Sequence record: OR836606.1 | Origin: Staphylococcus phage LY01 | Length of the DNA: 64,000 nt | Strand: one strand, 5' to 3' | Shown here: positions 5,643 through 30,535 of the stretch, in pieces | Layout of the letters: every line of letters begins with the position of its first letter | Numbering within the stretch: position 1 is the stretch's first letter | Notes under the pieces: model-generated | Database searches by the model: none | What the model saw: the letters and a program-made list of their open reading frames with translations, nothing else | What the model was told of the DNA's origin: nothing | Program-made: the position numbers and the translations under genes

Positions 5643-5724
5643 TTATCAATTCCACTCCTTAATTCAAATGTTACTTTGATAATTTAAACGTTATCTAGAA
5701 TTTGTAAAAAATTAAAATATAAAT

Positions 5725-5754
5725 TGCCAAACATTCTAATTTAAGAATGTTTGG
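5725..5754 (-). terminator. rho-independent terminator hairpin (gccaaacattct aattt aagaatgtttggc) followed by U-run on minus strand
   Basis: Perfect 12 bp inverted repeat plus T-rich tract in the minus-strand direction. Confidence 0.5.
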
Positions 5755-5761
5755 CTTATTA

Positions 5762-5917
5762 AATTAAATAAACAATGGTTCTTCCATAAAAGAATCCTCA
5801 GCAGTATCAACTTCATCTTGTTTATAAATTGTCTTATTTAAAAATAATTTAGTGGCTATTGTTGAAGATATAAATAATATAATTGATATAAAAATGATTA
5901 ATAATTTCTTTTTATTC
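5762..5917 (-). CDS. small predicted membrane protein (~51 aa, MNKKKLLIIFISIILFISSTIATKLF...)
   Basis: Short ORF with N-terminal hydrophobic helix, below the ORF-track length cutoff; terminator immediately downstream. Confidence 0.3.
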
Positions 5918-5958
5918 ATAGAATTTCATCTCTCCTCTAGATATAAAATAAAGTCTTT

Positions 5959-6156
5959 TTAGAAAAATGTATTTTTAACATTTAGCATTTCAATTCGTTT
6001 ATTAACGATATTAATATCCTTTTGAATTTCTTCTAATTTATCTTTATCAGGGCCATTAGTATGATGTGCTCCATTATTTAATATAATTTGGTAGTGTAAT
6101 TTATTAAATCTTTGAACTAATTTCATTTCATCTAATTTGTTTGTTTTATTTAACAT
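5959..6156 (-). CDS. hypothetical small protein (65 aa)
   Basis: ORF track; tightly spaced upstream of SbcC-like gene cluster. Confidence 0.35.
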   Translation of the reverse strand: MLNKTNKLDEMKLVQRFNKLHYQIILNNGAHHTNGPDKDKLEEIQKDINIVNKRIEMLNVKNTFF

Positions 6157-6171
6157 ATTATCATCTTATCC

Positions 6172-8907: not shown

Positions 8908-8963
8908 TATCCAGTTTCAACTCCTATTGATAAATATATTTCCGTTATTATAAATTTTTAATT

Positions 8964-9764
8964 TTATTTAAAATTATTTTTCACTAAATATTCTCTAACA
9001 AATTTTTCATCGGTAATTTCTTCAAATATATCATCTAAATCATCTTCAAAAATATTTATTTTATAACTATGATGATTATTATTAATAACATCATAATCAT
9101 AAACATTTAGCATATCTAAAAAAGAGGCTTTAGAAAAGAAAAATTCAATATTAAAATGATGTCTTAATGATTTTAATAAAATAAGATAATTATTAAAGAT
9201 ATCTTTAATTAAATTCTTAAAATCATCATGGTGCTTTATATTTTGATCTTGAATTTCATTTAATAATTTTTCAAGATTGTCAACTAATATCATTCGTTTT
9301 ATTTCTATTTCATCTTCTTCGTTTAAAATATCTTTTATAATACTATTAAATAAAATTTTATCAATTTTATTTTTTATAGGTTTGATTGTAAATAGTATTT
9401 TATCATTAACACTATTTTTATCTATACTAAAAATAGATTTAGTAGAATCTCTTTTAAATTTAAAATCTGCAATAGTTATAAGTGTTTCAAATGAATTTTT
9501 ATTATTAACATTGTAAAGAACAGGAGGTAGACATCTTGGTAAAAATTTTAAATTGCCTTTAATTGCATTATCTTCTTTTTTATAATGAACATCTATTGCA
9601 AGAGTTTCATATGAATCTTCTTCAGTCTGATTAATTATTTTTTCAGCTATTATTAAAGGTAAATAGTCATATAAAAATGAACCTCTATTATTCTTATCAA
9701 CTTCAAATAATTCATCATTTATTTTACATAAGAAATATTTTTTATCACTTTTCATTGCACCCAT
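8964..9764 (-). CDS. paralog-family protein A (266 aa) with conserved C-terminal tail FEEITDEKFVREYLVKNNFK
   Basis: N-terminal KKYFLCKINDELFEV and C-terminal HHFNIEFF...NNFK shared with 8 other genes; conserved gene junction TTTAAATAAAGGAG...ATG. Confidence 0.7.
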   Translation of the reverse strand: MGAMKSDKKYFLCKINDELFEVDKNNRGSFLYDYLPLIIAEKIINQTEEDSYETLAIDVHYKKEDNAIKGNLKFLPRCLPPVLYNVNNKNSFETLITIADFKFKRDSTKSIFSIDKNSVNDKILFTIKPIKNKIDKILFNSIIKDILNEEDEIEIKRMILVDNLEKLLNEIQDQNIKHHDDFKNLIKDIFNNYLILLKSLRHHFNIEFFFSKASFLDMLNVYDYDVINNNHHSYKINIFEDDLDDIFEEITDEKFVREYLVKNNFK

Positions 9765-9778
9765 TATATTGATCTCCT

Positions 9779-10558
9779 TTATTTAAAATTATTTTTCACT
9801 AAATATTCTTTAATAACTTTCTCATCTGTAATTTCTTCAAATACTCCAGATATTTTATATTCATCAAACAAATTATAATATTCATCATCTATATCATCAT
9901 TATTTCTTTTATCATTCTCTGGTATGTGCGAGAAACAACTATCTGATACAAAGAATTCTATATCAAAATGTGATCGGATTTGTGATAAAATTTCTAATAT
10001 ATAACTATTTACTTCGGTTAATATTTGGTATAAATCTTTATTATTTTTAAAATTAGTTTCTTTACTATTATTATAATCTGATATTAGATTTTCAGGACTT
10101 TCTATAGGTAAATTAAAAGGTATTTTTAAGATATTATCATTATCTAATATATTACCAATGACATTATTGAAAAATATTGAAGTTACATCTGGATTATATA
10201 TGGGTTCAATTCTAATTTTCAAACAATTTTTATTTTCTATTTTTTCATTGAATATAATATCAAAATCAATATTAAGTATATTTATTCCTTCTTTATTACC
10301 AACCTTATATTCTAAAAATGGAAAAATATTGCCAACTGATATAATTCCTGACCATAAATTATTTCCATTACTATCTTCACCCACAATCTCTTCAGAAAAT
10401 ATATCTATTTCTTCACTTTTTATTTGTAAATTAGGAAGTAAATAAGGTAGATATAAATGATCTTCATTTATACCATATCTAGATAAGTTATTAACTATAA
10501 ATAACTCATCTGTCATTTTACTTAAAAAATATGTTTTATCACTTTTATTTATACTCAT
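9779..10558 (-). CDS. paralog-family protein B (259 aa), tail FEEITDEKVIKEYLVKNNFK
   Basis: Same family; 3'-terminal ~60 nt nearly identical at DNA level to neighbours. Confidence 0.7.
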   Translation of the reverse strand: MSINKSDKTYFLSKMTDELFIVNNLSRYGINEDHLYLPYLLPNLQIKSEEIDIFSEEIVGEDSNGNNLWSGIISVGNIFPFLEYKVGNKEGINILNIDFDIIFNEKIENKNCLKIRIEPIYNPDVTSIFFNNVIGNILDNDNILKIPFNLPIESPENLISDYNNSKETNFKNNKDLYQILTEVNSYILEILSQIRSHFDIEFFVSDSCFSHIPENDKRNNDDIDDEYYNLFDEYKISGVFEEITDEKVIKEYLVKNNFK

Positions 10559-10574
10559 TAAATTGATCCCTCTT

Positions 10575-11279
10575 TTATTTAAAATTATTTTTCACTAAGT
10601 ATTTTTTAATAACTTTTTCATCTTTAATTTCTTCAAATAATCCAGATTCATTAAGTAAAAATTTATAATCAAATATAGAAAATGATGTGTCTTCGTGTTT
10701 TTCCATTTTTGTATATATTCCTGTCATAAAATATGCTAACTCTGATTTCCTAACATTTAATTTTAAATTTCCATAACTCATTAAATCCATAATATAATTT
10801 AAAAGAGTTTTATTAAATTCTTTGACTAGTAATTCTAATCCTTCAAAATTTTCAATAGTGTGCCTTATAGTATCACTTAAGATTAAGTATTTTCCATCTT
10901 CTCTATTTTCTATTTCGTAAATAAAAGATTCTTCTGGAAAATCTTTTTTAAATATTCCTCCATCTAGAATAGAATTAAATTCTAAATTAAAATCTGTTTT
11001 GCAAATTTTTAAATTTCTTACATAATCATTACTTATTATATTAGAATTTTGTTTGATTTTAACTACTTTATCATTAAAAAGAGAATAGGTTAAAGAAAGT
11101 TCAGATCGGTAATTAAGATATCCAGGGTCTTTATTCAAATTCTCATTTTTATTAATATATTTCATACACATTTTAGTAAATATTTCAGTCAATTTATCTA
11201 TACGAAAGTCAGTTCTATCTATATCGAAGTGAAGTATTTCTCCATCTAATTTATATCTATAGTAATTATTATATTCCAT
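10575..11279 (-). CDS. paralog-family protein C (234 aa), tail FEEIKDEKVIKKYLVKNNFK
   Basis: Same family. Confidence 0.7.
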   Translation of the reverse strand: MEYNNYYRYKLDGEILHFDIDRTDFRIDKLTEIFTKMCMKYINKNENLNKDPGYLNYRSELSLTYSLFNDKVVKIKQNSNIISNDYVRNLKICKTDFNLEFNSILDGGIFKKDFPEESFIYEIENREDGKYLILSDTIRHTIENFEGLELLVKEFNKTLLNYIMDLMSYGNLKLNVRKSELAYFMTGIYTKMEKHEDTSFSIFDYKFLLNESGLFEEIKDEKVIKKYLVKNNFK

Positions 11280-11300
11280 TATGAAAATCCTTTCTTTATA

Positions 11301-12110
11301 TTATTTAAATCCTTTTCTAACTTTAAACGCTTTCATTTCTTTTTCTGTTTTAATTTCTTTAAATAAATTATTTTCATCACTTTCTATTAAATCTAATATA
11401 TTAACTAAACCATAATTTTCATTATAAAAATCAATATAAAATTCTATATCATCTTTATACATATATTTAATTTCATAAAGAGACATTAATATACTAAGAT
11501 TATTCTGGTATAATATGATAAAGAATAAATCCTTAAAATCTTCTATAAATTTAATAATAGGATTTTTATCAAATGCTGATATTGGAAAACTTAAATCCAT
11601 AAATGGTTCATTGCCATATTTGATCTCATATAAATTCTTTTCAAACAATTCAATATTATTTACAAGAGCTCTCATTTTTTCATTTATTCCTTCATTAACC
11701 AAATTATTTTCATTTACTAAATCATTAGTAATTACATTGAAATATTCTTTATATAATGAATTATCAAAATGAAAATCTAATTTAAATTCTCCACTTTCAA
11801 TAGTTTCAATTTTATTCATTCTAGCAATATTAAAATTAATATGAAAATTAGTATTAAATTTTTTAAGAGTATCATTTTTATTATGTGTATTTCTAAAATA
11901 AATATCGCTATCAATTTCTTTATAATGAAAAATCATATAATCTTCTTCTTTAGAAATATTATCTATGAAAGATTTAGCATATCCTTTGCTACTTAAAAGA
12001 TTATTAATATCCATAGTAGTTAATACGTATGCAATATATTCATATCGGTTAAGATAATTTCTATCAATTTCAATTAATTCATCTCTCTCTTTATCTATAA
12101 AATATTTCAT
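11301..12110 (-). CDS. paralog-family protein D (~270 aa), tail FKEIKTEKEMKAFKVRKGFK
   Basis: ORF track starts at 12158 inside upstream gene; family-consistent start MKYFIDKERDELIEI at 12110 with AAGAAAGGA RBS and TAAT-ATG coupling. Confidence 0.6.
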   Translation of the reverse strand: MKYFIDKERDELIEIDRNYLNRYEYIAYVLTTMDINNLLSSKGYAKSFIDNISKEEDYMIFHYKEIDSDIYFRNTHNKNDTLKKFNTNFHINFNIARMNKIETIESGEFKLDFHFDNSLYKEYFNVITNDLVNENNLVNEGINEKMRALVNNIELFEKNLYEIKYGNEPFMDLSFPISAFDKNPIIKFIEDFKDLFFIILYQNNLSILMSLYEIKYMYKDDIEFYIDFYNENYGLVNILDLIESDENNLFKEIKTEKEMKAFKVRKGFK

Positions 12111-12111
12111 A

Positions 12112-12888
12112 TTAGGAAAATCCTTTCTTAACTTTAAATTTTTTAATTTCTTTCTCATCAGTTATTTCTCTAAAATATGCATCAACATCAAAATCATTTA
12201 AACTAATATACTTATCATATTCTTTTTCAAAACTAAAATCTTTTTCTTTTTCCCTTTCTTTACCACTAAAATTCCAATCTGTTGCAATAAGAAATTCAAT
12301 ATCTGAATGATCTTGTATCTGATCTAGCAATTCAAAAATTAATTTATTTGTAGTAGTAAACATCTTGTGTAAATCTTCCTTGAGTTCTAAAGGTCTTTTT
12401 CCCTTTTGTATATGACTTTTAAAATATTTTAAAAAGCGAATCATAACTTCTTCATTAAAGTCATGCGGTAAATCTAGTTCACCATTATCATCAAATATAC
12501 CAGATCTTTTACTAAATAATCTCTTCCCTATTTCACTATTATTATATAAAGGAATAGCTTTAAACTTAATATAATTATCGTCTTCTTCATTTAGACTAAA
12601 GCGTATTATAGCGTATATAAGAAGTTCCATTTTATTTTTCTTACCTTTATATTTGTATTTAACTTTGGGGAAAGCATTAAAATTTATTCTAAGACCAACT
12701 AAACCATTGTCATCATGTTCTTCATGAGATATAAGAAAACTCTCATTATAATTTATTTGCATTGTAGTGAATAGCTCACTTAAAACTTTCCACTTAAAGT
12801 CAAAATAGAGTGTTTCATTTTCATTGAAAGTTAATTCTATAAATTCATCTTTCGATTTACTAATGTAGTATTTGTTAATTTTCTCCAT
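12112..12888 (-). CDS. paralog-family protein E (258 aa), tail FREITDEKEIKKFKVKKGFS
   Basis: Same family (DHSDIEFLIATDWNF ... KKGFS). Confidence 0.65.
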   Translation of the reverse strand: MEKINKYYISKSKDEFIELTFNENETLYFDFKWKVLSELFTTMQINYNESFLISHEEHDDNGLVGLRINFNAFPKVKYKYKGKKNKMELLIYAIIRFSLNEEDDNYIKFKAIPLYNNSEIGKRLFSKRSGIFDDNGELDLPHDFNEEVMIRFLKYFKSHIQKGKRPLELKEDLHKMFTTTNKLIFELLDQIQDHSDIEFLIATDWNFSGKEREKEKDFSFEKEYDKYISLNDFDVDAYFREITDEKEIKKFKVKKGFS

Positions 12889-12915
12889 TTACTTAACTCC
12901 TTTTATTATAATAAT

Positions 12916-12941
12916 CCCAATACTAATTTAATAGTATTGGG
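12916..12941 (-). terminator. terminator hairpin cccaatacta...tagtattggg (same arm sequence as hairpin at 25676-25706)
   Basis: 10 bp inverted repeat downstream of 12993..13370 gene. Confidence 0.45.
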
Positions 12942-12992
12942 ATAACATTTTTATAATATATATTTATTCTAATTTTCAGAATTAGGCGATAC

Positions 12993-13370
12993 TTAACTAT
13001 TTTCCATTTCTTCACGTTGTCTTTTTAATCTATCAAGAACTTCTTTTTCTTCTACATTTTGATTTAATTCTGGTTCAATTAATAATTCTTTTTCTTTCAT
13101 ATCTTCTAATATATTTAATCCTTTTCCAAACTCTGGAGATTCATTAGGAGGATTAAATCTATTGTGTTTATTATCATAGAAATTTAATTTAACTAGATCT
13201 GAATTAGGTTCAATAACTACCTCAGCTTCTATGAATAAAATATCATAAGGGTCAGTGACACGTTTTCTATATAGCAAAGCTTTAGTATAAGAATCTTTTT
13301 TAAATCCATAATCTCTTAATTCTTGTTTAATATTTTCTTTACTTAAGTTTAATTTGTATTCTGATAACAT
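12993..13370 (-). CDS. hypothetical protein (125 aa)
   Basis: ORF track only. Confidence 0.4.
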   Translation of the reverse strand: MLSEYKLNLSKENIKQELRDYGFKKDSYTKALLYRKRVTDPYDILFIEAEVVIEPNSDLVKLNFYDNKHNRFNPPNESPEFGKGLNILEDMKEKELLIEPELNQNVEEKEVLDRLKRQREEMENS

Positions 13371-13519
13371 TACTTATTGCACTCCTTTTCATTGTATTCA
13401 TGAACTTCATTAAGATGTCTATGGTCATGATAAATAAACATGCAATCTTCTAATTTAGGTTCATATCTCTTTTTAGTTAATAATTCATATAATCTTTTTA
13501 ACATGATAAACCTCCTTCC

Positions 13520-13861
13520 TTAAAATGATACGTGTAGAAATATATAAAAATCATTCTTAACTCTATCAATTTTATATATTTCTGACATAAGAGCATGATA
13601 ATAAGATAAATCATAATAAAAGTTATCTTCTTTTAAGTCATCAATCATTAGATCTCTTAAAGTTTCATTATCTATAACAATAATATCATCATGCGGAACT
13701 TTTGATTTAAACTTTAATGTTTTATAAAGTTCTTTAGGTGTATTAAAATATAATTCAAATAAATGGTTATCTTCTTTTTTATATCGTTCTTGATCAAGAT
13801 ACCATTGTAAATCTCTTTGTTTACTTTTATTAATTCCGTATATACTTAAACTAAATTCCAT
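13520..13861 (-). CDS. hypothetical protein (113 aa)
   Basis: ORF track only. Confidence 0.4.
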   Translation of the reverse strand: MEFSLSIYGINKSKQRDLQWYLDQERYKKEDNHLFELYFNTPKELYKTLKFKSKVPHDDIIVIDNETLRDLMIDDLKEDNFYYDLSYYHALMSEIYKIDRVKNDFYIFLHVSF

Positions 13862-13915
13862 ATTCTCTCCTCCGATATAATATAGCTCCGTAATACATTA
13901 TAGAGATAAAATTAA

Positions 13916-14695
13916 TTAAAATTCAGCTTTTTGATATAAGTTTCCGAATTCATCTTTAACTATATCATCTCTGCCCTCAACTTCTTCAAATACTAAATCT
14001 CTGGTCATGGTAAATAATTCTGGGTATTCTTCTTGAAGTTCATCTTCTTCAATAATATTCATATCCATATCAGCAACTACTAATTCATATTCTTCAGGAG
14101 AATCCCCTAAAACAAAGAATTGTAGTGAACCTTTATAGACTTTTAATATAGAAGATAAATCTTGTTGATCTAATTCATTAATTTCTTGACTCAATTCTTC
14201 TTTTCGATCCAATTCTTTATTAATAGATTTTTCTTCTTCATCCAATTGTAATAATTTTGCGTCTAATTCTTCTCTAAAATCATTGTCTTCATCATTTACT
14301 TCTTCAGGTTCCATCATACTGTCTAGAATGTCTTTATTAGACATTGTATTAAGTTGATTAAGTACATTCTTAGCAAGCTCTTTATAATTATCTTCTGATT
14401 CATCATCAATAGACATTTTCTGAGCTTTCATAGTTAAGTCTATAATATCTTTCTTAACATTTTTCATTTGCATAATAGTATCTTTAATTTCTTTCTCTAC
14501 ACTAATAATGTTAGCTTCCATATTAGATACAAATGTATGTTTAGGATATTTCAGATTCTTAGTTAGATCCATTATACGATGTTCTAATTGAACTTCTTTC
14601 TTTTCCATTTTATCCTTAAATTTTACTAGCATTTTATATTCTTCCATCATATCATTAATTTGTGATATCAAATCAATTTCAACATTATCGGACAT
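13916..14695 (-). CDS. hypothetical acidic coiled-coil protein (259 aa)
   Basis: ORF track; heptad-like acidic repeats. Confidence 0.45.
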   Translation of the reverse strand: MSDNVEIDLISQINDMMEEYKMLVKFKDKMEKKEVQLEHRIMDLTKNLKYPKHTFVSNMEANIISVEKEIKDTIMQMKNVKKDIIDLTMKAQKMSIDDESEDNYKELAKNVLNQLNTMSNKDILDSMMEPEEVNDEDNDFREELDAKLLQLDEEEKSINKELDRKEELSQEINELDQQDLSSILKVYKGSLQFFVLGDSPEEYELVVADMDMNIIEEDELQEEYPELFTMTRDLVFEEVEGRDDIVKDEFGNLYQKAEF

Positions 14696-14751
14696 TTATT
14701 TTTTCAACTCACTTCCATCATATTAATTAATATAAAAGAAAGTTAATTAAA

Positions 14752-15390
14752 TTATTTAAAATTTTCTTTAACCGCTAACTTTTTTATTTCTTTTTCATCT
14801 TCTACCTTTTCTAAAATCTCATAAAGTTCATTAAAAGTATATTCATTTAAAATTAAATCTTTTCTAAATTCTTGACTGGTTATGAAATCGACATTATCTT
14901 TTTTTGAATTAACTGTGTATACTAATAAACTTATATCTTTTTCGTTATTAAAAAGATTAACTATATTTGAAATTAATTCGTATTCTATATTATTTATATT
15001 TTCAATTTGAATATAAGTTACATATGAAAATACATTACCGCTAATTAAAGTTTTAAAAGGTCCTATATTTTTACATTCTTTATCAATATTACGTAATAAT
15101 GAAAATACAAAATATAATTCAAAACAACCATTACCTTTATCAGTTATATCTATATAAAAACCTCTAGTTCTATAATAGGTATTTTTGTCCTTTATCAAAA
15201 TACCATCATTTCTTAACGAAAATGAGCCATTTTCATCTATCTTATTTTTAATATTGTTAGAATTAAATAACTCTTTAAATAATTCAATATTTAATTCTTC
15301 TTTACTAGTATCTTTTTTAACGGAAACTATGTCACCTCTATCATCAATCTTATAAAAATCATGATTTTTGATATATTGATTTATACTCAT
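14752..15390 (-). CDS. paralog-family protein F (212 aa), tail LEKVEDEKEIKKLAVKENFK
   Basis: Same family. Confidence 0.6.
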   Translation of the reverse strand: MSINQYIKNHDFYKIDDRGDIVSVKKDTSKEELNIELFKELFNSNNIKNKIDENGSFSLRNDGILIKDKNTYYRTRGFYIDITDKGNGCFELYFVFSLLRNIDKECKNIGPFKTLISGNVFSYVTYIQIENINNIEYELISNIVNLFNNEKDISLLVYTVNSKKDNVDFITSQEFRKDLILNEYTFNELYEILEKVEDEKEIKKLAVKENFK

Positions 15391-15406
15391 TAAGTTATTC
15401 TCCTTT

Positions 15407-16015
15407 TTATTTAAAGTTTTCTTTAGTTAGATATTTTTTAATTTCTTTTTCGTCTTCTAACTCTCTAAAATATGCATGAGGTTCAAATATATCAATACCA
15501 TTTATAAAGATTTTAATATTTCCATTATTTTCTTCTTTAAGCATTTCATCTAGCAAATTAGATAATTTATCTAAATCATTTTCATGTTCATCATAACCTA
15601 TAATATTTTCTTTATGAAAATTTTTCATCATGATTATACTGACACCGAGTGAATTCTTATCAACTTCTAAAAGTTCTTTATCCGCATGTCTACTAATAAA
15701 AGCCCTTAATTGCAAAGTTACTTTATTATCTTTAATTTTTGCATATGAGAATTCTAAGAATTCTACTGGAAGATTCTTTCTAACTTCATTATACATATTG
15801 CTGAAATATATATTTTCACTATCAATTAATTCAAAGAGTAAACTTAGATTATAATAAAGGTCATCATTTAAACTATAGTAATCTAAATTTCTTTCTATTA
15901 ATTTTTTATAATAGAGTTTATTTATCTTATCTTTAATATCACTTTCATCTTTACTAATTATAAAAAGCTCATTAATATCTTTATTATAATAGAATTTATT
16001 TTCTTTTAAAATCAT
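15407..16015 (-). CDS. paralog-family protein G (202 aa), tail FRELEDEKEIKKYLTKENFK
   Basis: Same family. Confidence 0.6.
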   Translation of the reverse strand: MILKENKFYYNKDINELFIISKDESDIKDKINKLYYKKLIERNLDYYSLNDDLYYNLSLLFELIDSENIYFSNMYNEVRKNLPVEFLEFSYAKIKDNKVTLQLRAFISRHADKELLEVDKNSLGVSIIMMKNFHKENIIGYDEHENDLDKLSNLLDEMLKEENNGNIKIFINGIDIFEPHAYFRELEDEKEIKKYLTKENFK

Positions 16016-16165: not shown

Positions 16166-18712
16166 TTATTCTTTAGTTAAAGAGTATAAAGCTTGTACCA
16201 TATTATTTATGATAATTAGACTATATCTTCTTAGTAATATATTTAGTCGTTGAACAACTTATATTAAGTTGATGCTGATTAATCTAATAAGATACTTCCA
16301 GCAATTAATATTATTTATTGAGAGCATACAAGCATGTTACTCTCATTACCCAAATTACGTACTGAATTACCAGTGTAGTTTAGGTAGTTAGTTTTCTTAT
16401 TAAGAAGTTTATTAGCTTCTTTATTAGCCTCTACAGTCCAGAGAGATCTGATAGAAATCATATCCATTTACGTTATCTATATTAAGATAATATAGATCAG
16501 ACTATATCTTTACTTTAATAAGCATATTATATTTAGTCGTTGAACACTATTTGTAGTGATGCTGATTAAGATAATAATCTTTCCCAGCAATTAATAATAT
16601 TTAAATACGGCAATATAAATTACCGTCAAACGTTTATGTTATCTATAATAAATGATATCATAGACCAGACTATATCATCATCTCAATTGAGATATATTAT
16701 ATTTAGTCGTTGAACAACTTATATGAAGCTGATGCTGATTGCTCTAATAAGAGTTTTCAGCAATTAATAATATTTTCATTCTTAAATCACTTTAAGAAGC
16801 GACTTTTTCAAATCGGCACCTAACGCTATTTAATTTATAATTAAATTTGGACTATATCATAAACCTAAATATTAGGTTCCCTCACACTTCGGGAATTCAT
16901 TTCCCTACTCTACTCACTTCGTTATAGTATTTCAACTATACTTATTCTCTATATAAGAGTTACATTTATTGTTTTCGATAGTCTCTGAACGTTTATCCAT
17001 CATGTGGATACTTCGCTGCTAGACTTTCCCATTATTAAATACCCTTAGCATTTTCAGCATAGGTCATCAAAGAGATTTTTTCTGTCTTTCGACTGCATGT
17101 CACGCTATCCATTACTGGCATACGTTGTAGCTCTCTAAGCATTAGGGTTTACAAGCAATTCATAAGGTATTTTTTATCCTATATTACTATAAGACTGGAG
17201 CGTAAGTTACTCCGGCATAACTGTTGTGTATAATAGCGGTATCTATAAATACATCTTCATCAACAGGATATTCATGAACAACTTTAGGATAATCTTTAAG
17301 TACAATATCGTCTAAAGTAATTTCAGGAATTGTATCAACTGTAGTCAATATTTTAATTTTGGCAGGTGCAACATTCAAGAAATTTTCGCAAACTATATTA
17401 AATTAATACAGATCAGACTATATCATTACCTACTTTTAGGTATATTATATTTAGTCGTTGAACAAGTTTAATTGACTTGATGCTAATTAACCTATTAAAG
17501 TCTTTTAGCAATTAATAATATTTTCATTCTTAAATCACTTTAAGAAGCGACCAGTGTATTAATCGGATATCTTGAATAAACCACATGCTTATCTTCACAT
17601 ATTTCTGTAGCAGCTATATAAAGTAAATCAATTACAGTAAAAGTTCTACCTAAAGTATTTTCAAATAATTTAACTTTATGACGTTTACCTTGTCTATCAT
17701 TTACATATATAGGACTAAATCTTTCATTAGGATCCTTAATAAAGAATTCTAACATATTCTTAATAGCTTTATCATCAAACTGTTCATATACTTCTTCTAA
17801 TGATAATTCATTTTCATCAGTTCCAGTAGCGGTTTGGAAGGCATCTTTGTGGATTTCAATAAAATCGATAATGTATTTGCTAAAGAAAGGTAAGAATAAA
17901 GTAACTAATTGAGTTAATGGTACCCCTAACTGACCAAATTCAATTTGCATTTCATCCCATTTATTTGAATTAATCTTAGGTGAAGAAATAACTGAGCGAG
18001 TACTGTTATCTACCGTCTTACCTAAAATATTTCTTTGCATCATACCAGTTTTACCTGATAGTTCTCCTGAAGTTAATTTAACGTATATTTCAAATAATTT
18101 ATTTTGAATATTATATTTAGTCGTATTAGCTACAAAGTCAAATGAATTAAAACTAATTGAATCTACAGATCTTAAGATGCTTGCATACATATCATTTATT
18201 TCTTCAGTATCTTGAATTTCCCCTGAAGTTTCATTAGGATTAAAGTCACGATAGAAAGCAGGTATTACGAGCCATTTATCTGTGAATATTCTATCTTTAG
18301 GAGTATTTTTAAGCATATCAATTTTTTCATTTCGGATACGAGAATCATTTTTTCTAAATTTAAGATTTTCATAATTATCGTATAAGAAATTTAATCCAGT
18401 TTCACCATTTTCATCTGGAACTAATTGTCCTTTCTCAATTTTAAAGTAATCAGAACCTTGAATACATAGATCTATATTCTTATCTAATTCTCTCATAGCT
18501 TTATAAGCTACAGGATTCAAGTATTTGCCACCTAAATTAATCCAACCTATATTATTCTTTCTTTCATCAGTACCTATTAAACCAAATATTTCATATGAAA
18601 ATAAACCATCTTCTTTAGGTAAAGTTCCTGAATCAAAGAAAATAGGATTAGTAACTTCTTTAGCTCCATAAGCTGTAATAACTTGATCAACATTAACCAT
18701 ATCTATTTTCAT
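16166..18712 (-). CDS. multisubunit RNA polymerase beta-prime-like subunit, N-terminal fragment; six exons approx 17561..18712, 17192..17388, 16812..16825, 16622..16630, 16349..16464, 16166..16198 separated by five group I introns
   Basis: RNILGKTVDNSTRSVISSPK matches RpoC NLLGKRVDYSGRSVIVVGP; SRYPI ~ NRAPTLH; spliced model reads ...SLGAD|FDG|DMISIRSLWTVEANKEANKLLNKKTNYL, collinear with E. coli [34 protein letters not shown]; gene ends ...NLGNESVQALYSLTKE* near the YYMTRD-equivalent point. Confidence 0.7.
16199..16348 (-). ncRNA. miniature group I intron (~150 nt) in RNAP beta-prime-like gene
   Basis: P1: exon GAGAGU pairs IGS GCUCUC with terminal U-G; P/Q/R/S core; 3' end ...AUAAUAUG| leaves in-frame terminal exon VQALYSLTKE*. 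Confidence 0.65.
16465..16621 (-). ncRNA. miniature group I intron (~157 nt) between FDG micro-exon and DMISIRS exon
   Basis: P1: exon GACGGU pairs IGS GCCGU with terminal U-G; core P/Q/R/S; 3' end ...CGUAAAUG| is the only junction that restores the third Asp of DFDGD in frame. Confidence 0.7.
16631..16811 (-). ncRNA. miniature group I intron (~181 nt) between ...LGAD and FDG
   Basis: Exon CCGAU| pairs IGS GUCG (U-G). 33 nt 5' segment GUCGCUUCUUAAAGUGAUUUAAGAAUGAAAAUAU is identical to the intron at ~17390-17560. 3' end ...AUAAACG| is the only phase-0 G downstream of an in-frame UAA. Confidence 0.65.
16826..17191 (-). ncRNA. group I intron, ORF-less (~366 nt), larger relative of the miniature family and of the IStron intron core
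   Basis: P AUGAAUUGCUUGUAAAC, Q AUCUAGCAGCG, R UUCAGAGACUAUCGAAAAC, S AUGAUAUAGUCC; compared with 24270-24600 the 5' P1-P2-P3 segment, R/P7 and the S/3' segment are largely conserved, P5 and the central domain diverge; putative P1 GUCU|-GGAU; proposed 3' end UUAAAUAG|. Confidence 0.65.
17389..17560 (-). ncRNA. miniature group I intron (~170 nt, boundaries +/- 10 nt) between SRYPI... and ...ENFLNVAPAK
   Basis: Same core; shares the 33-nt 5' segment and the CCGAU| - GUCG P1 arrangement with the intron at 16631-16811. Two phase-consistent junction pairs are possible, so the ends are approximate. Confidence 0.55.
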
Positions 18713-18798: not shown

Positions 18799-19551
18799 TT
18801 AATTAACTAAGCTGTTACTCATATAACTAAAATAATTTAAATCTATTTCTTTTTCTTTAGCTTTCATAATAGTTGCTTCATCTAATTTTTGATTATATCC
18901 TAATGAAGGAATATCAATACCGGTCTGCATAACATTATCACAGTTCATTATAATATCTTTAATATTACTAACCTCGTCTTCATATATTCTAGTAACATAC
19001 CCTAATGTGTTAATTACATCTGATTTCTTTTCATCTGATTCAAGATAATAAATATCAACCTTTTCCATACTTCCCCTAAATAAAGTTTTTAAAAATCTTT
19101 CTTTAGATTTTAAGTTATTGTCAGAAGTCTTAGTTACAATTGACAATTTATTCATTAAAGGAGTATTAATTGTATATGACAAACTTTTAGCTAGATTTGT
19201 TGGCTGTAATGTATCGTATAAATCTTTTTTAAATACAATTTCTTCGTGAAGTTTATTTCTAGCTTCATTAACTTCATCTTCAGAAAATCTTTCATAAACA
19301 TCTTTTCTCACTAACCATTGGTCAATATAATATTCAGGACGATTGAGAACTGTATTGTAATGAGTGCTATAATTATAATCTGGAGATAGTCTGAAAAATT
19401 GATTGTAATAATCAAAATCTTCATGCATTAATTGAACAATTTTAGGTGAAATATTCACTAAAACTTCATCGCAATCAACAACTATATGACCTGTATTCAT
19501 TTCGTTCTCTTTATACATATAATTAAAATTCTCCTTTGTCATAATCTTCAA
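18799..19551 (-). CDS. HAD-superfamily 5'(3')-deoxyribonucleotidase-like protein; true start probably internal (MNTGHIVVDCDEV, ATG ~19500)
   Basis: HAD motif I VVDCDEV (DxDxV) about 10 residues from the likely N-terminus, as in NT5C-type nucleotidases. The ORF-track start at 19551 overlaps the upstream gene by 29 nt. Confidence 0.45.
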   Translation of the reverse strand: MKIMTKENFNYMYKENEMNTGHIVVDCDEVLVNISPKIVQLMHEDFDYYNQFFRLSPDYNYSTHYNTVLNRPEYYIDQWLVRKDVYERFSEDEVNEARNKLHEEIVFKKDLYDTLQPTNLAKSLSYTINTPLMNKLSIVTKTSDNNLKSKERFLKTLFRGSMEKVDIYYLESDEKKSDVINTLGYVTRIYEDEVSNIKDIIMNCDNVMQTGIDIPSLGYNQKLDEATIMKAKEKEIDLNYFSYMSNSLVN

Positions 19552-20863
19552 TGAATCTATTTTTTAATTCTTTTATTTTATCTTCATGAAATTTAGTTTG
19601 TCTAATTTTAAAAGGTTTAGTGCTGTCAAGAAAATCTGTTGAATGAATATTTTCTTCATCAACTAAAGTCATATATTTAGGATTAGTTGTATTTAGTGCA
19701 TCATATAAATCAAATTTATTCTTTTTCATAAGATTGTATTTATCTTGAGTCATTAAAACTGAATAATAAATATCCTTTAATTTAACTGATCTTCTGTAAT
19801 TAGAAGGATCTTGTAAACCAGGTGTTTCTTTAGTATTAGTTATAATTCCTTTACCATGATACTCCTTACCAATATAATAAACTAAATAAATGAACCCCAT
19901 ATTATCTTTAACGCTAAATAATCTATATCCATCTTTATTTTCATCAAATACCTCATAAATATTCCAATCATTAATTACTCTACGCTTAGCATAATAGGGT
20001 CTATTTTCTGGTTTTAAATGATATGGTTGTCCTCCAATACTAAGTCGTTTCTCATATTCTTCTTTTTCAAGTTGTTTAATATAAGTTTTACTAAATTTAT
20101 CCAAAACAATTGAATGTTCTTCATCAAAACTTTCATAATTATAATTAAAAGGTAATACAATCCTAAAAGTTTTACTTGTACATCTATATAAAACTTTACT
20201 TAGATTTTTTTCATTTAATTTAATTTGGATTTCATTAGTTTCTTCATTATAATTAATATCTTCATCATTTATAGAATATAGACTTTTAGTAATTACATTA
20301 AATGTAATTGGATTAACGTCTTCAATCATATTAATAATGATTAAATTTCTTTCATAATCTATATATGCTAACATGTTATACATATCTAAGTTAAGTGAAT
20401 CAGGGTCATACTTATCCTTTGTTTTATGAGGATCTCTAGCCCATACCTCTAATTCTCCCGCATTTTTAATTTTTAATTTAGAATTATCTTTTAATGTGAT
20501 ATCTTTAAGAAAATCTTTACCAATATGATTTCTACCAATCTCATTTAATAATATTGCTAGTTGATGTTCAAATAACTTAGGTATATCTTTCTCTAAAGTA
20601 AAGAAATAACAATCATTATTAAAATTATTTTTATTGCTTTTACGATATTCCTTTAATAAATCAACTAACTCTTTATCTTCATTAAATCGAATAATATTAT
20701 CAATAATAAATCTATTTTGATCAAATCTATAGAACCATGTCCCATTATCATCCATTTTTCTTAACTTAGCCGGTATTTTTCTACCATTTTTTCTGTATAA
20801 ATTCAAATTTTTACTAAATACATCTGACTGTTTTGCCATAGCATTAATACACTCCATTTTCAT
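19523..20863 (-). CDS. hypothetical protein (446 aa)
   Basis: ORF track; no motif recognised. Confidence 0.45.
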   Translation of the reverse strand: MKMECINAMAKQSDVFSKNLNLYRKNGRKIPAKLRKMDDNGTWFYRFDQNRFIIDNIIRFNEDKELVDLLKEYRKSNKNNFNNDCYFFTLEKDIPKLFEHQLAILLNEIGRNHIGKDFLKDITLKDNSKLKIKNAGELEVWARDPHKTKDKYDPDSLNLDMYNMLAYIDYERNLIIINMIEDVNPITFNVITKSLYSINDEDINYNEETNEIQIKLNEKNLSKVLYRCTSKTFRIVLPFNYNYESFDEEHSIVLDKFSKTYIKQLEKEEYEKRLSIGGQPYHLKPENRPYYAKRRVINDWNIYEVFDENKDGYRLFSVKDNMGFIYLVYYIGKEYHGKGIITNTKETPGLQDPSNYRRSVKLKDIYYSVLMTQDKYNLMKKNKFDLYDALNTTNPKYMTLVDEENIHSTDFLDSTKPFKIRQTKFHEDKIKELKNRFIEDYDKGEF

Positions 20864-21050: not shown

Positions 21051-24000
21051 TTAGAATTTAATCATATTAGATACAAATGAACTATTTGAAGATTCCAATA
21101 CTCTAACACCAATAGATTCAATAATATCTTTACCTGGTTTAATATGATCTTCAATCATACTATCATAGTCAATAAAAGGTCTAAACTCTTCAGGAATTGT
21201 ATTACCTTCAACTGCAATTACATTTAAACCGTTTTTAACTAAACTTTCATTCTTAAATACTTCTCTAAATCTATCTAAAGTATCTTCATCAGTTATCTTA
21301 TTTTTAATATCTCCAAATGTACTAATATTCAATTTAACTGCTAATATCTTAGCAGGTAATGCTATTTCTTTTTCTGGGAACATTATATTCCATGCTAAAG
21401 CAGCTCTATATGCCATTTGAGAATAAGGGTCTTTATATACCTCAGCATTATTAGCTTTAAACGGTTTTAAGAATTCGATTTCTCCATTATCTAATGATTT
21501 CTTAATCATTTCTTCTATATCTTTAAATTTACGTATTATCTTAATACGATCTACACCGGTTTTATTTTCTAAAATATCTTTTTGTAATATTTCAGTAAAT
21601 AGTTCTCTAATACGTTTATTAGTATTAACTTTTCTAATAGCCATACCTTTAACATCTAAATCTGGAGGTTGAATTAAATTACCCTCTTGTTGAATTACTG
21701 ATGATGCATAAGTTTTCTTTTTATCAGTTGTTAATTGTTTATCAAGTAAAACATTTTTATTAGCTTTATTAAATTAATAAAGATTAGACTATATCTTATA
21801 CTTATATTAAGTACATTTATATTTAGTCGTTGAACTTAATTTCTTAAGCTGCTGATTTAATTAATGAACTATTCCAGCAATTAATAAATTTATCTTTCTG
21901 TATATCGCTATACAACGGAGCATTAACTTGATAATACTCATTTTTCATTGATATTAAACCTAAATGTTCTTCCTCTAATCCTACATCTTTACAGAATCTA
22001 TAGTAAGACAATTCTAATAATTTAGTTATTTGATAGTTAATAATAGATATATTACTTACACGTTGTTCTAATTTATCCTCTAAACCATTCTCTGCAATTG
22101 GAAAATCTTCAGGTTTTAAAGATTTAAATTTTTCGTATAACGGATCTAAGTGAACAAAGTTCATTTATGTTAGCTGTATCAAATATAATACAGATCAGAC
22201 TATATCTTCTTTAGAAATATATTTAGTCGTTGAACTTAATTTCTTAAGCTGCTGATTTGATTAATAAATCATTCCAGCAATTAATATTTTTTATTGACAG
22301 CAATTTTTTATCACAACTGTCAGTATCTATAGTTAATACGCTTCTACGTTTCTTGTAATTCATTCTATACATTCTATTATAATCTTGATAATTATATATA
22401 ACCCAATCTTTTAATATTTCAAATAATTCATCTAATAATGGAATCATATCTTCAGGAGGATCATTTGGATCTAAGAAATCTTCTCTGCCAGTCATTTTAC
22501 TAATTTTATTATCAAATATATCGGTATGATCAATTAACCCAAATAAATTATTTTTGAAATATACTTTATTTTTATCTTCTTGACTTAATTTACTAAATAC
22601 TTCTTCTAACTTAAGAAAATCTTCTTCACTATAATCTTCTTCAACATTAGAAACTAAACCTTCTAAAATTTCTTTATCAGTTGGAATTGATTTTATCTTA
22701 ATATCATGATCTTCATATTTTTCACTAATTATTCTTAATATATAATGATATATTTCATCAATCTTCATGAAAAAGATTTTACCGCCAATAAATCTTTCTA
22801 AAGCTATCGCTGAAGTAGTTACAATATCAACTGCTATATAAATTCGTGAATTTAATTTAATTAATTCGAATTTATTCGACTTCGTCATTACTTTTACTTA
22901 CTTTGCACTTTAAGTTTTTCGTTATAAACTACTTCAACATAAAGTGTCAACCAAAGCAGAGGTTAAAGCTCTTAAGTCATCACATTTGGACATTCAAGAG
23001 AATTTAAATCTAGTTAGCCTGCCCAACAAAACGCTTACCGTACATTTTGAGGTTGACAGCAGCGTTATAATCTCTATCCATTTTATTTCCACAATCACAC
23101 TTATACCATCTATCTGATAACTTCATCTTATTTTCTTTAGTTAAGACTTGACCACAATTAGAACATAATTGAGTTGATGGGAACCATCTATCTGCTACAA
23201 TAATAGTATTACCATTGCTTTCAGCTTTTTGTTTTAATAAAGTTCTGAATTGTCTCCAATTCATTGCAGAAATAGATTTAGACAAATTTCTATTTTTAAT
23301 CATATTTGAAACTTTAAGATCTTCAATTGTAATATACTGATAATTTTTAATTAAGTTAGTAGTTATTTTATGAAGATAATCTTTTTTAATGTTATTAATT
23401 CTCATCCATATTTTTTGTATTTTGGTTTTCAATACATTGTATTTGTTAGAACCATAAACTTTACGAGATAATCTTTTTTGATAGTACTTAATCTTATTGT
23501 ATAGTGGAATCAATTTATCATTTAATGAATGATATTTCTTAAATTTACCGAAATCATCATTAATGATAGCTAAATCTTTTACACCTAAATCAATACCAAC
23601 ATGGCTATTGTTATGAATTAAGCTCTTATTATTATCAACTTTCATTACTATTGAAGCGAAATATTTTCCAGCATATTTAGATATAGTAACTTCTTGAATG
23701 GAATTATAATTAAACGGGATAGATTCTTTCATTTTAATTAATGAATTAATTCCTTGAAGTTTTAATTTATTATTTTTATCGCCTTTAATTTGTAATGAAT
23801 AATTATTCTTCTTATAGAACCTTGTACTTAATTTAGAATGTTTTTTAGATTTAAATCTCGGATACTTACCGTAACCTTTCCACATCATATTAAAAGCTTT
23901 ACCTAAATCTTCAGTTGCTGTGTCCATAACTTGAGATATTTGATCTTTTTCCCAATCTTCTTTACATTTTTTAAGTTCATCACGAACTTTCCTATGTGTT

Positions 24001-25234
24001 GGTTTTGGAAGAGATGTATCAAGTTGATGAGCATTCCACATTTGTTTCCATTTATTAAGCCCTTTATTATAAATATATCTAGAATATCCAAATGCTTGAT
24101 TAAATACTTCTTTTTGTTCTTTATTTGGTTTCAATTCGATTTTAATAGATTTGTACATGTGATTTCACCTCCTTCAAATATATAATATATACTTAAAGTT
24201 AGTGATGAATTTTAATTAAATTAAACTCACGAATTCCTGATTTAGTGTTTCCACATCAGTTAAATAGCAAGACTATATCATATTCTATCAGAATGATAGA
24301 ACCCTCGCACTTCAGGAATATTATTTCCCTACTCTACTCACTTCACATAGTATTTCAACTATGCTTATTCAGGCGTTAATCCTGTGCTTTCGATAGTCGT
24401 TGAACGTTCATCCATCATGTGGATGCTTCGCTGCTAGATTTTCCATTAGTCCACCCTTAGCACTTAATTTACATTAAGCTTTTATTTCAGCCTAGGTAAT
24501 CTTAGAGTATTTTTTCTGATTTTCATCTGCTTTCACGCTATCCATTACTGGTATACGTTGTAGCTCTCTAAGCTTTAGGAGTTTACAAGCAATTCACGAG
24601 GTTTGCTCACTTCTTTCATGAATTAAACTAACTTTAATTCACTATGAAGTAAGGGAGTTTTGATTAACTATTTTAAAATAATTTAAGTGAGCAATTCGTG
24701 TTAAATCACTTAAATTATATTAAACTAAAATAGTTTCTTTTCTCCACTATAAGTAGTTGCTGGACCTGAATTAGCATCATAGAATGTACTATTTTTCTGT
24801 ATCATAGCACCGTAATAACTGTTAGCTAAGATCTTAATTGTTTTTTGTTCATTCATATATTTATCATGTAAAACATCATCTTTACCTTTATAAATAAACA
24901 TATTGTGCTTAGCTACTTTACGAGAATCTATAAAGTCTTTTAACATTTCCGCATTTAAATTTTTTCTTTGTGATTGAGGCTGATAAATAGAACCAGAACC
25001 AGTTACAATTAAATTATTATTAATAATTTGTCTTAAGGTTGTATCTACATTCATTTTTTGTCCTGATATTTCTATTAAAGCTGGATCTAAATGTTTTTTA
25101 ATATATTCTCTACAGGCATTAATTAGTTTCTCATCATCAATATCAGGTTTTCTTATTTTAATTAATTTAATTAAATTTTCTAAATAACCCGTTATAGCCC
25201 TTTTACGTTCATATTTATTATCTTGATTAGACAT
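21051..25234 (-). CDS. family B DNA polymerase, C-terminal half (motif B, motif C, KKxY, thumb); exons approx 24745..25234, 22316..22885, 21915..22161, 21051..21763, interrupted by an IStron-like intron and two miniature group I introns
   Basis: Motif B KTIKILANSYYGAMIQKNSTFYDANSGPATT (T4: [29 protein letters not shown]); TTSAIALERFIGGK (T4: TTFGQMALQWIERK); motif C VLTIDTDS at the exon/intron junction; KKKTYA (KKRYA); C-terminus FIDYDSMIEDHIKPGKDII...MIKF (T4: WMDYTVLLEKTFIKPLEGF...FDF). Confidence 0.75.
21764..21914 (-). ncRNA. miniature group I intron (~151 nt) in polB-C, upstream of the KKxY motif
   Basis: Core P/Q/R/S present with the variant Q ...AAUCAGCAGCUU; 3' end ...UUUAAUAAAG|CU regenerates UCU (Ser) with a phase-1 5' junction after ...NAP; the upstream ORF 21844..22164 reads through the intron P element as INCWN...LIKSAA*. 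Confidence 0.55.
22162..22315 (-). ncRNA. miniature group I intron (~154 nt) inserted immediately after polB motif C (IDTDS|)
   Basis: P1: exon GACAGU pairs IGS GCUGUC with terminal U-G, placing the 5' splice site directly after the AGU codon of DTDS; core P/Q/R/S; 3' end ...ACAUAAAUG| (G of the apparent ATG of ORF 21844..22164); downstream exon NFVHLD parallels T4 IYVSAD. Confidence 0.7.
22889..23120 (-). ncRNA. putative TnpB guide RNA scaffold (omega RNA / right-end RNA) overlapping tnpB 3' end and extending to the 3' splice site
   Basis: Locally GC-richer structured segment (GGCAGGCUAACUAGAUUUAAAUUCUC...GGUUGACACUUUAUGUUGAAG) between tnpB stop and polB exon; inferred by analogy with IS605 elements. 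Confidence 0.35.
23010..24158 (-). CDS. tnpB: TnpB (IS605 OrfB-family RNA-guided RuvC nuclease), 382 aa, embedded in the IStron-like intron
   Basis: RuvC-I HVGIDLGVKDLA, RuvC-II YITIEDLKVSNM, zinc finger CSNCG...CDCG, RuvC-III RDYNAAVNL; no tnpA nearby. Confidence 0.85.
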   Translation of the reverse strand: MYKSIKIELKPNKEQKEVFNQAFGYSRYIYNKGLNKWKQMWNAHQLDTSLPKPTHRKVRDELKKCKEDWEKDQISQVMDTATEDLGKAFNMMWKGYGKYPRFKSKKHSKLSTRFYKKNNYSLQIKGDKNNKLKLQGINSLIKMKESIPFNYNSIQEVTISKYAGKYFASIVMKVDNNKSLIHNNSHVGIDLGVKDLAIINDDFGKFKKYHSLNDKLIPLYNKIKYYQKRLSRKVYGSNKYNVLKTKIQKIWMRINNIKKDYLHKITTNLIKNYQYITIEDLKVSNMIKNRNLSKSISAMNWRQFRTLLKQKAESNGNTIIVADRWFPSTQLCSNCGQVLTKENKMKLSDRWYKCDCGNKMDRDYNAAVNLKMYGKRFVGQAN

Positions 25235-28313: not shown

Positions 28314-28339
28314 TTCACTCTCCTATTAATTAAAAATTA

Positions 28340-28374
28340 AATTGAGTTGATAATTTAACTTACCAACTCAATTA
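28340..28374 (-). terminator. terminator hairpin aattgagttg...caactcaatt
   Basis: 10 bp inverted repeat between convergent/tandem gene ends. Confidence 0.4.
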
Positions 28375-28386
28375 TATAATATATAT

Positions 28387-30453: not shown

Positions 30454-30490
30454 CGTTTATTCTCCTTTAAGTAAAAAATTTTAAATATGA

Positions 30491-30524: not shown

Positions 30525-30535
30525 AAAATTTAAAA

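Follow-up and report, generated by a model that had tools for sequence, protein, structure and literature searches.

The stretch of DNA analysed here, 64,000 nucleotides (nt) of Staphylococcus phage LY01 (record OR836606.1) and called the window below, contains the N-terminal gene of the virion RNA polymerase beta' subunit, the gene for the DNA polymerase and the gene for the DNA polymerase exonuclease subunit, all of them split by group I introns. All genes in the region are carried on the minus strand, as are the introns, modules and exon pieces for which window coordinates are given. The beta' gene hosts five insertions, b'-1 to b'-5, and two of them, b'-1 (17389-17561, 173 nt) and b'-3 (16631-16811, 181 nt), begin with the same guide-bearing segment and follow the same exon bases. 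In this paper we describe the family of miniature introns (minis) to which both belong, its distribution among related phages, and the routes by which its members may have reached new sites. An initial annotation had placed the two introns at 16631-16811 and ~17389-17560; the former limits hold, and comparison with phage PALS_2 moves the latter to 17561.

Over 10 kb around the beta' introns the phage is 80-92% identical to nine Staphylococcus jumbo phages of 260-275 kb (MarsHill, Madawaska, Machias, PB50, AH12, PALS_2, S6, DC4 and SA1), none of which covers the 10-kb stretch in full. Junctions in the beta' gene were placed against the uninterrupted beta' gene of PALS_2, which encodes 504 amino acids (aa). 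Relative to that gene the window copy has five insertions; their excision leaves a 504-aa protein that agrees with PALS_2 at 493 of 504 residues in a single ungapped block, and the codon rejoined across b'-1, AU/C (a slash in a motif marks the splice junction), encodes Ile, as does AUU in PALS_2. The spliced exonuclease subunit (574 aa) is collinear with the 574-aa protein of S6 and identical to it at 556 residues, and the DNA polymerase is an intact 645-aa protein after intron and IStron removal. The introns sit in catalytic motifs: a span of only 23 nt, coding for GALGADFDGD, is entered by b'-2, b'-3 and b'-4, with b'-3 between the D and the F of (N)ADFDGD, and the intron pol-2 follows DTDS of the DNA polymerase.

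All eight minis of the window contain the boxes P (AAUUGCUGG), Q (AAUCAGCA), R (GUUCAACGACUAAAU) and S (GAUAUAGUC), end in G, and have a final U in the 5' exon that pairs with a G of the guide. They are 140-184 nt long and always possess P1, P3-P7 and P9; P2 and P8 are optional and are missing from the 140-142-nt members. An Rfam scan of the whole window, at the gathering threshold and with E up to 10, left all ten introns undetected. This negative is due to the filters and not to the sequence, since a 1.6-kb sub-search with laxer filters matched all five beta' insertions to RF00028 with 54.6 (b'-3), 43.4, 39.9 (b'-1), 30.9 and 27.2 (b'-2) bits, the gathering score being 50. We also built a covariance model, R1, from the eight minis. 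In the window it recovers exactly these eight, at 102-139 bits (130 for b'-1 and 139 for b'-3), and in the beta' and polymerase loci of MarsHill, Madawaska, Machias, PB50 and AH12 a further 19 minis come to light; the same loci of PALS_2, S6 and SA1 gave zero matches. Among 25 distinct sequences, 95.7% of cells in the predicted helices are paired, compared with 73.5% after shuffling and 28-50% when the partners are slid, and 27 of 36 pairs show compensatory double changes; the alignment was fitted to the model, which somewhat inflates the pairing figures, and P7 is invariant and gives no covariation signal. No ORF (open reading frame) of at least 40 aa lies inside b'-1 or b'-3, and the minis hold no endonuclease gene. 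Both are ORF-less miniature group I introns, predicted from their sequences to be self-splicing, and b'-1 runs from P1 to P9 with a P2 hairpin.

The whole Machias genome gave 31 R1 matches; P1 helices were assigned manually in 28 of them and then checked with a script. Of these 28 introns, 27 have the U.G wobble at the exon end and a final G in the intron, and the one exception has C.A, an isosteric wobble. At the b'-4 site of Machias (locus 7739-7988), PB50 and AH12 the exon ends GAUGGC/ and the guide is ACCAUC, with C.A in place of U.G; an intron specific to AH12 (locus 7767-7912) shows this C.A pattern as well, with GGC/ and ACC.

The segment common to b'-1 and b'-3 is longer than first thought. 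It had been given as 33 nt, although the sequence quoted for it, GUCGCUUCUUAAAGUGAUUUAAGAAUGAAAAUAU, has 34, and the perfect identity extends over 45 nt, GUCGC...AAUUGCU (GUCGCUUCUUAAAGUGAUUUAAGAAUGAAAAUAUUAUUAAUUGCU), at 17551-17507 in b'-1 and 16803-16759 in b'-3. In b'-1 this module (17507-17551) comprises the internal guide sequence (IGS) GUCG at 17551-17548, P2 at 17546-17527, J2/3, the 5' strand of P3 and the start of P4; in b'-3 (16759-16803) the IGS is at 16803-16800 and P2 at 16798-16779. P2 is an 8-bp hairpin, UUCUUAAA-GUGA-UUUAAGAA, and minimum-energy folding of the 5' regions recovers both it and P1. The exon before each intron ends CCGAU (17566-17562 for b'-1, 16816-16812 for b'-3), as the initial annotation had observed, but the guide GUCG engages just four bases of this pentamer, CGAU, the U at the splice site forming a U.G wobble, while the fifth base, C, faces C. 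The P1 exon strand of b'-1 is thus CGAU at 17562-17565, U being the last exon base; on the intron side P1 is lengthened by 2 bp, which in b'-3 are closed by a GAAA loop.

A perfect repeat of 45 nt cannot be due to chance. The common exon 4-mer is no independent coincidence, because it follows from the common guide: an intron with the guide GUCG splices only after CGAU, and the match is therefore expected under any mechanism after selection, so that the earlier argument for mobility from a recurring pentamer was circular. Nor does the segment mark the spread of a whole element, as had been proposed. Outside the module, b'-1 and b'-3 agree at 87 of 128 positions (68%, MAFFT; 73% in a structure-guided alignment) against a family background of 55-68%, and there they are only marginally each other's nearest relatives; the difference between 45/45 and 87/128 is significant (Fisher p = 8e-7). 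The identity tract ends exactly in the block AAUAUUAUUAAUUGCU, whose core UUAAUUGCU is invariant in all eight minis and whose remainder varies at few positions, and this near-invariance makes the block a natural crossover point.

Mosaic structure of this kind is found in other copies. Two Machias introns in two different RNA polymerase genes (M10 and M27) have an identical 42-nt 5' module after GGU/ and divergent bodies. Copies of the GUCG type group by phage clade and not by site, and the cores at one site may belong to different subfamilies in different clades, as for the core of window b'-5, which is nearest to the core of Machias b'-4 (0.94). The Machias b'-1 and polA introns are 80% identical overall, and copies at different sites are all mosaics and not clean duplicates. 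The family evolves as a mosaic through gene conversion, and the likeliest reading of the 45-nt identity is a recent conversion tract between two resident copies that share a target. We infer the direction and timing of this event; for splicing, a conversion between b'-1 and b'-3 is neutral.

Mobility of the minis, which the initial annotation had proposed, agrees with their distribution. Searched with either intron, blastn finds 29 places in Machias, 27-29 in AH12, 17-19 in PB50, 11-12 in Madawaska and 9 in MarsHill, and zero in PALS_2, S6, DC4 and SA1, so that copy number ranges from 0 to ~30 across the nine relatives. An alignment of eight phages (the window phage and seven relatives) shows every beta' site to be polymorphic, and intron-minus alleles exist. 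The intron b'-1 has orthologues in Machias, PB50 and AH12; b'-4 and b'-5 are each found in five phages; b'-3 is restricted to the window phage and missing from the seven others aligned; and AH12 has an extra beta' intron at a site of its own. MarsHill lacks the prohead protease intron of Madawaska, with flanking exon identical at 154 of 156 nt (98.7%), and the spliced Madawaska junction corresponds to one continuous 156-nt piece in five intron-less phages. These comparisons support mobility of the family.

It is very improbable that the introns are simply old, vertically inherited and subject only to precise loss, the likeness between copies reflecting structural constraint. Orthologues of b'-1, b'-4 and b'-5 do occur in both clades, and precise loss is possible in principle. 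Such a history would, however, require that introns were precisely lost 9 to 30 times independently in PALS_2, S6, DC4 and SA1, and would have to accommodate 45 nt of perfect identity adjoining 32% divergence in the rest of the pair, same-site cores from different subfamilies in different clades, the difference in intron content between Madawaska and MarsHill within 98.7% identical flanks, and the restriction of b'-3, pol-2, b'-2 and the IStron to the window phage among those compared.

A rule relating guide and target emerges when the GUCG+P2 module is followed beyond the window. It recurs at 89-91% identity, and altogether occupies six sites in five genes, always directly after CGAU: virion beta' site 1 (exon UAUCCGAU/; window, Machias, PB50 and AH12), virion beta' site 3 (exon GGUGCCGAU/; window), the non-virion RNA polymerase beta' gene (exon (GGU)GCCGAU/, spliced GGUGCCGAU/; Machias), gyrB (exon GAUGCCGAU/; Machias and AH12), the prohead protease gene (exon UGUUACGAU/; Madawaska and PB50) and the DNA polymerase gene (exon ACAAUCGAU/; Machias, PB50 and AH12). 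The CGAU is the sole feature common to the six, as no base beyond -4 is conserved and the 3' exons are unrelated. A search for the module in IMG/VR and JGI metagenome contigs gave zero matches. Sites of insertion are polymorphic, and guide and target are correlated at more sites than the initial annotation had listed, the opposite of the pattern that it had named as refuting mobility. Empty alleles mostly lack CGAU: they read GCAGAC, GCAGAU or GCUGAC at beta' site 3, UAUGAC or UAUGAU in the prohead protease gene, and AUAGAU or AUUGAC in the DNA polymerase gene. At the prohead site both differences between Madawaska and MarsHill in the 156 nt are the P1 bases -4 and -1, and at virion beta' site 3 GCC GAU is found in the window only, the seven relatives having GCA or GCU in place of GCC. 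An independent case of guide-target matching comes from a gut jumbo-phage contig, in which sister introns follow CAGAU and CGGAU and have the guides GUCUG and GUCCG.

The position of b'-3 has been used more than once. In the window its context is GGU GCC GAU/UUU GAC GGU GAU. The Machias non-virion beta' gene (locus 2734-3220) has two adjacent mini-introns with a 6-nt exon, GCCGAU, between them, and the second of these (M07, guide GUCG) lies in GGU GCC GAU/UAU GAU GGU GAU, a position paralogous to that of b'-3. NAD/FDGD likewise holds a mini-intron in a distant gut jumbo-phage contig, where the guide GUCUG matches the exon CAGAU. The position is therefore a recurrent landing site, and the paralogous gene may be the source of b'-3, whether through RNA or through DNA.

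It is possible, though on balance doubtful, that b'-3 is specifically a copy of the intron at AD/YDGD of the non-virion beta' gene, its 5' module having been homogenised with that of b'-1 later; this would concern b'-3 only and be compatible with either route. The catalytic motifs of both beta' genes share GGUGCCGAU/UWUGAYGGUGAU, P9 and the tail of b'-3 are nearest to M07 (31/38, compared with 21/36 for b'-1), and the confinement of GCC GAU to the window at the virion site would suit such an origin. The middle part of b'-3, however, is no nearer to M07 than to b'-1 or b'-4 (62-65/85), and the non-virion beta' gene of MarsHill, a close relative, is reported to be intact (bioRxiv 10.1101/2020.12.14.422802), that of the window phage lying outside the window.

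Our overall explanation, to which we assign a probability of roughly 0.5, is that of a mobile mini-intron family that has spread to CGAU sites and is reshaped by allele exchange and gene conversion. Introns of the GUCG sub-lineage would settle new sites where an RNA offers CGAU, the likeliest route being reverse splicing of the excised intron into the transcript, after which the intron-bearing RNA would be copied into DNA and enter the genome by recombination. Intron-plus and intron-minus alleles would then pass between co-infecting phages by homologous recombination, and gene conversion, crossing over in the invariant P3/P4 block AAUAUUAAUUGCU, would go on exchanging segments between copies within one genome. 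The 45-nt identity would on this account be a trace of conversion between an older b'-1 and a newer b'-3, and not of the gain of the site.

Reverse splicing, which had been suggested earlier and is compatible with the site pattern though unproven, fits because the sites share four upstream bases and nothing downstream and because there is no endonuclease gene, as predicted for this process (PMC1299323). We infer this RNA route from the comparison of sites, and favour it tentatively, at somewhat below even odds. A bolder formulation, in which group I introns of the clade are still transposing in nature through reverse splicing into mRNA, the 4-nt guide alone choosing sites in protein-coding genes, an orphan reverse transcriptase and phage recombination fixing the insertions, and module exchange retargeting the family, is possible but in our judgement unlikely. 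The reverse transcriptase in question, of retron type and 501 aa long (MarsHill gp206, locus 30090-31595), is found in all nine relatives at 55-96% identity, with a weaker homologue in Listeria phage LPJP1; it is not encoded in the window.

Several observations weigh against a route through RNA. Selection for splicing in essential genes yields the same match of guide and target, whatever the mechanism of insertion. The targets are few in kind: 26 of the 28 in Machias belong to NGRU, a class comprising 2.9% of all 4-mers, so that recurrence is partly expected, and the target space is probably narrow because a P1 of 4-6 bp needs G-C pairs in a genome of 26% G+C. The coding strand of the window contains 83 CGAU sites. 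Within the window, similarity of cores and similarity of guides are not significantly correlated (r = 0.27, permutation p ~0.10). The reverse transcriptase is present in all nine phages, the four intron-free ones included, and does not track intron load; because intron-free phages have it too, it lends no correlative support and is permissive only. The support for the RNA route is purely comparative. The reuse of NAD/FDGD in a distant gut phage and in the paralogous Machias gene is what DNA-level homing into conserved sequence predicts. Finally, synonymous differences between the window and PALS_2 beta' genes concentrate within 15 nt of the junctions (19/92, odds ratio 3.7, p = 2e-5), and these clustered differences could reflect co-conversion from DNA donors. 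Recurrence of a guide 4-mer was also considered as a sign of common descent and set aside as weak, again because 26 of 28 Machias targets are NGRU.

These points can be combined into an account in which DNA alone is involved. Introns bound to their sites would spread by homologous recombination between co-infecting phages, perhaps helped by homing endonucleases acting in trans or supplied by larger relatives; the GUCG module would have come to several sites by shuffling at the P3/P4 joint, and the exon bases would have been selected or co-converted. Mosaic copies and module exchange are demonstrated, phages of this clade encode many homing endonucleases (bioRxiv 10.1101/2020.12.14.422802), and the Madawaska b'-4 site is occupied by a large intron that bears a homing-endonuclease gene and has the same guide, GCCGU, as the mini at this site in the window. 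The clustering of synonymous changes at junctions, the covariation of guide-pairing exon bases with intron presence, and the reused NAD/FDGD position are covered equally well by this account. Its difficulty is the founding of a new site. A guide module moved to another site breaks P1 unless the exon fits, so that shuffling alone cannot found a site in an essential gene; downstream of the junction the six CGAU sites have nothing in common, and upstream of it only 4 nt, far below what a homing endonuclease or homologous recombination needs; and the minis are without an ORF. We consider an exclusively DNA-based history less likely than not, yet a strong rival.

The remaining introns of the window show how closely the family is packed. 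Between b'-2 and b'-3 lies a micro-exon of 14 nt (16812-16825, CGUUAGGUGCCGAU) whose final CGAU is the P1 exon strand of b'-3; it differs from PALS_2 at 6 of 14 positions, all changes being synonymous and four of them being shared against all seven relatives. The micro-exon between b'-3 and b'-4 is 9 nt long (16622-16630, UUUGACGGU), and its ACGGU pairs with the guide GCCGU of b'-4, so that each micro-exon provides the P1 strand for the intron that follows. The 157-nt mini b'-4 (16465-16621) is also present in MarsHill, and Machias, PB50 and AH12 carry a different core at its site. The smallest, b'-5 (16199-16338, 140 nt), is without P2 or P8 and has the guide GCUCUC for the exon GAGAGU.

In the DNA polymerase gene, pol-2 (22162-22315, 154 nt, guide GCUGUC, exon GACAGU) comes right after DTDS, and pol-3 (21752-21935, 184 nt, guide GCUC, exon GAGU) has orthologues in MarsHill and Madawaska. 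The initial annotation had regarded this pair as near-identical and had placed pol-3 at 21764-21914; they do share the Q variant AAUCAGCAGC, but are only 76-78% identical. The exonuclease subunit gene contains exo-a (5017-5158, 142 nt, guide GCUCAG, exon CUGGGU) and exo-b (4562-4714, 153 nt, guide GUUCCAU, exon AUGGAAU).

Two introns of the window are of a different and larger type. The intron b'-2 (16826-17209) measures 384 nt from 17209 to 16826, and not 366 as first given, and the IStron-like element of the DNA polymerase gene, located at first to 24270-24600, spans ~24743 to 22833 (boundaries +/-2 nt) and combines a large group I ribozyme with a downstream tnpB (23010-24158). One IStron is CdISt1 of Clostridioides difficile. 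IStrons combine a group I intron with an IS200/IS605 element that carries TnpB (PMC10690162). The 382-aa protein of the window tnpB matches the Pfam families OrfB_IS605, Cas12f1-like TNB and HTH_OrfB_IS605. At this site the element is missing from all eight other Staphylococcus jumbo phages; its nearest TnpB, at 42.5% identity, and its nearest ribozyme are both in Listeria jumbo phage LPJP1, and a database search for a co-conversion donor returned for b'-2 a sole match, of 70%, in the same phage. In b'-2 and in the IStron alike the exon ends GGAG, the last base being G and unlike the near-universal U; the G was accepted because reading frame and protein conservation allow no other junction. 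The two share a ribozyme type that R1 does not match, and their role as progenitors of the minis, which the initial annotation had proposed, is thereby not supported.

A connection between minis and TnpB is nevertheless present in Machias, which has three TnpB genes, each with a mini-type ribozyme directly upstream; these are the top-scoring R1 matches, at 115-128 bits. They lie at loci 28006-29417, 27935-29355 and 5562-6987, one of them splits a virion protein gene, and their guides and targets are GUCC with GGAU and GUCU with AGAU. Some members of the mini family therefore carry TnpB, and the MITE-like tie (MITE, miniature inverted-repeat transposable element) first drawn to the tnpB-bearing element holds at the level of the family and not through the window IStron.

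Whether the minis are themselves non-autonomous IStron derivatives, moved as single-stranded DNA by an IS200/IS605 TnpA in trans, may be judged from the same data. TnpA recognises a short target through pairing with a guide beside the left-end hairpin and places the insertion 3' of that target, an arrangement resembling CGAU-linker-GUCG-P2; the Machias pairs are close to GUCG with CGAU, the core of exo-b is nearest to the Machias IStron ribozymes, and the window has a TnpB-bearing IStron of its own. However, no TnpA was seen, the window IStron holding tnpB only and all four Machias 'transposases' being TnpB-sized; many minis are without P2 and hence without a left-end hairpin; the targets vary (GAGU, GGGU, GGU, CUGU and others) and always follow the RNA guide; and the window IStron ribozyme, missed by R1, is of the other type. 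Movement of this kind is improbable.

Some further features of the region may be recorded. An ORF of 446 aa (19523-20863, minus strand) lies between a deoxyribonucleotidase-like gene and the DNA polymerase gene, and has counterparts in MarsHill, Madawaska and Machias and none at the corresponding position of PALS_2. Pfam searches found no significant domain and no homing endonuclease in the 446-aa ORF next to the beta' gene, and no homing endonuclease in three ORFs neighbouring the beta' region. At 8963-16015 (minus strand) seven paralogous ORFs of ~200-260 aa each stand in tandem, with conserved 3' ends that make up the repeat families D1 and D2, spaced ~650-815 nt; three of the ORFs gave no Pfam match. 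Two pairs of direct repeats, 47095-47323 with 52521-52749 (229 nt, 81% identity) and 45136-45213 with 50289-50366 (78 nt, 76% identity), are both ~5.2-5.4 kb apart, which suggests a duplicated block of genes.

How group I introns that lack an endonuclease reach new sites has been debated since the 1980s, with evidence drawn mostly from phylogenies of ribosomal DNA and from artificial systems. This clade is an unusually clean natural setting for the question: a young and abundant family of minimal ribozymes, six sites with one 4-nt target, intron-plus and intron-minus versions of each site in very close relatives, and a clade-wide reverse transcriptase. Four intron-free relatives grow on Staphylococcus hosts, three of them on S. 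aureus. For annotation, the RNA polymerase, DNA polymerase and exonuclease subunit genes look fragmented because a standard Rfam scan missed all ten introns. Members of 140 nt, and exons of 6-14 nt between adjacent ribozymes, bear on the minimal needs of group I catalysis.

Introns of this general kind have a history in phages. Landthaler and Shub reportedly found, in 1999, three introns in orf142 of the Staphylococcus phage Twort. ORF-less group I introns in phage genes also occur in T4, SPO1 and SP82. As in these phages, the introns described here are of self-splicing type, interrupt essential conserved genes, several to a gene and within catalytic motifs, and are optional between relatives. 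Unlike them, the introns of the present family are much smaller, at 140-184 nt, with some members lacking P2 and P8; up to five stand in one gene, separated by exons as short as 14 and 9 nt, and the family attains ~30 copies per genome and has swappable 5' modules.

Reverse splicing by group I introns is said to have been demonstrated by Woodson and Cech in 1989 and by Roman and Woodson in 1998. The spread of group I introns by this process was treated by Bhattacharya et al. in 2005 (PMC1299323). Here, as in the reverse-splicing cases, related introns stand at sites that share only 4-6 nt complementary to the guide, and there is no endonuclease gene; those cases concern eukaryotic rRNA genes or experimental E. 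coli rRNA, whereas ours concerns protein-coding phage genes with mosaic copies, and its evidence is comparative. With regard to IStrons, the window contains one, and the three of Machias, built on a mini-type ribozyme, have the target NGAU, recalling the TTGAT-type targets of IS605; b'-1 and b'-3 are unlike IStrons in having no TnpB, guide RNA or transposon ends.

The closest precedents are found among jumbo phages. Korn et al. (bioRxiv 10.1101/2020.12.14.422802) reported introns in AR9-like and MarsHill-like phages, with exon numbers and boundaries that vary between phages. Their study concerns the same clade and the same genes (RNA polymerase subunits, DNA polymerase, gyrB, prohead protease and terminase), with junctions taken from protein alignments only; the ribozyme family, guide-target pairs, modules and intron-free relatives were not described. 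In Jug (jumbo gut) phages (PMC12880540, Sci Adv 2026) there are hundreds of short ORF-less group I introns, with a mean of ~206 nt and 18.5 per genome, which split essential genes and whose splicing is confirmed by metatranscriptome reads. Those phages have other hosts and belong to another lineage, and neither guide-target recurrence nor mosaicism is reported for them. On IMG/VR, R1 has 261 matches, distributed over 80 contig stretches; most of the contigs measure 200-400 kb, and they are not established as Jug phages. The R box is found in 95 stretches, most again from contigs of 200-400 kb. One such stretch (10780-12420) has seven minis in 1.6 kb of an RNA polymerase beta' gene, one of them at NAD/FDGD. 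The kind of element is already known; the description of the ribozyme family, the modularity of guide and body, the pattern of six CGAU sites and the intron-free sister phages appear to be new.

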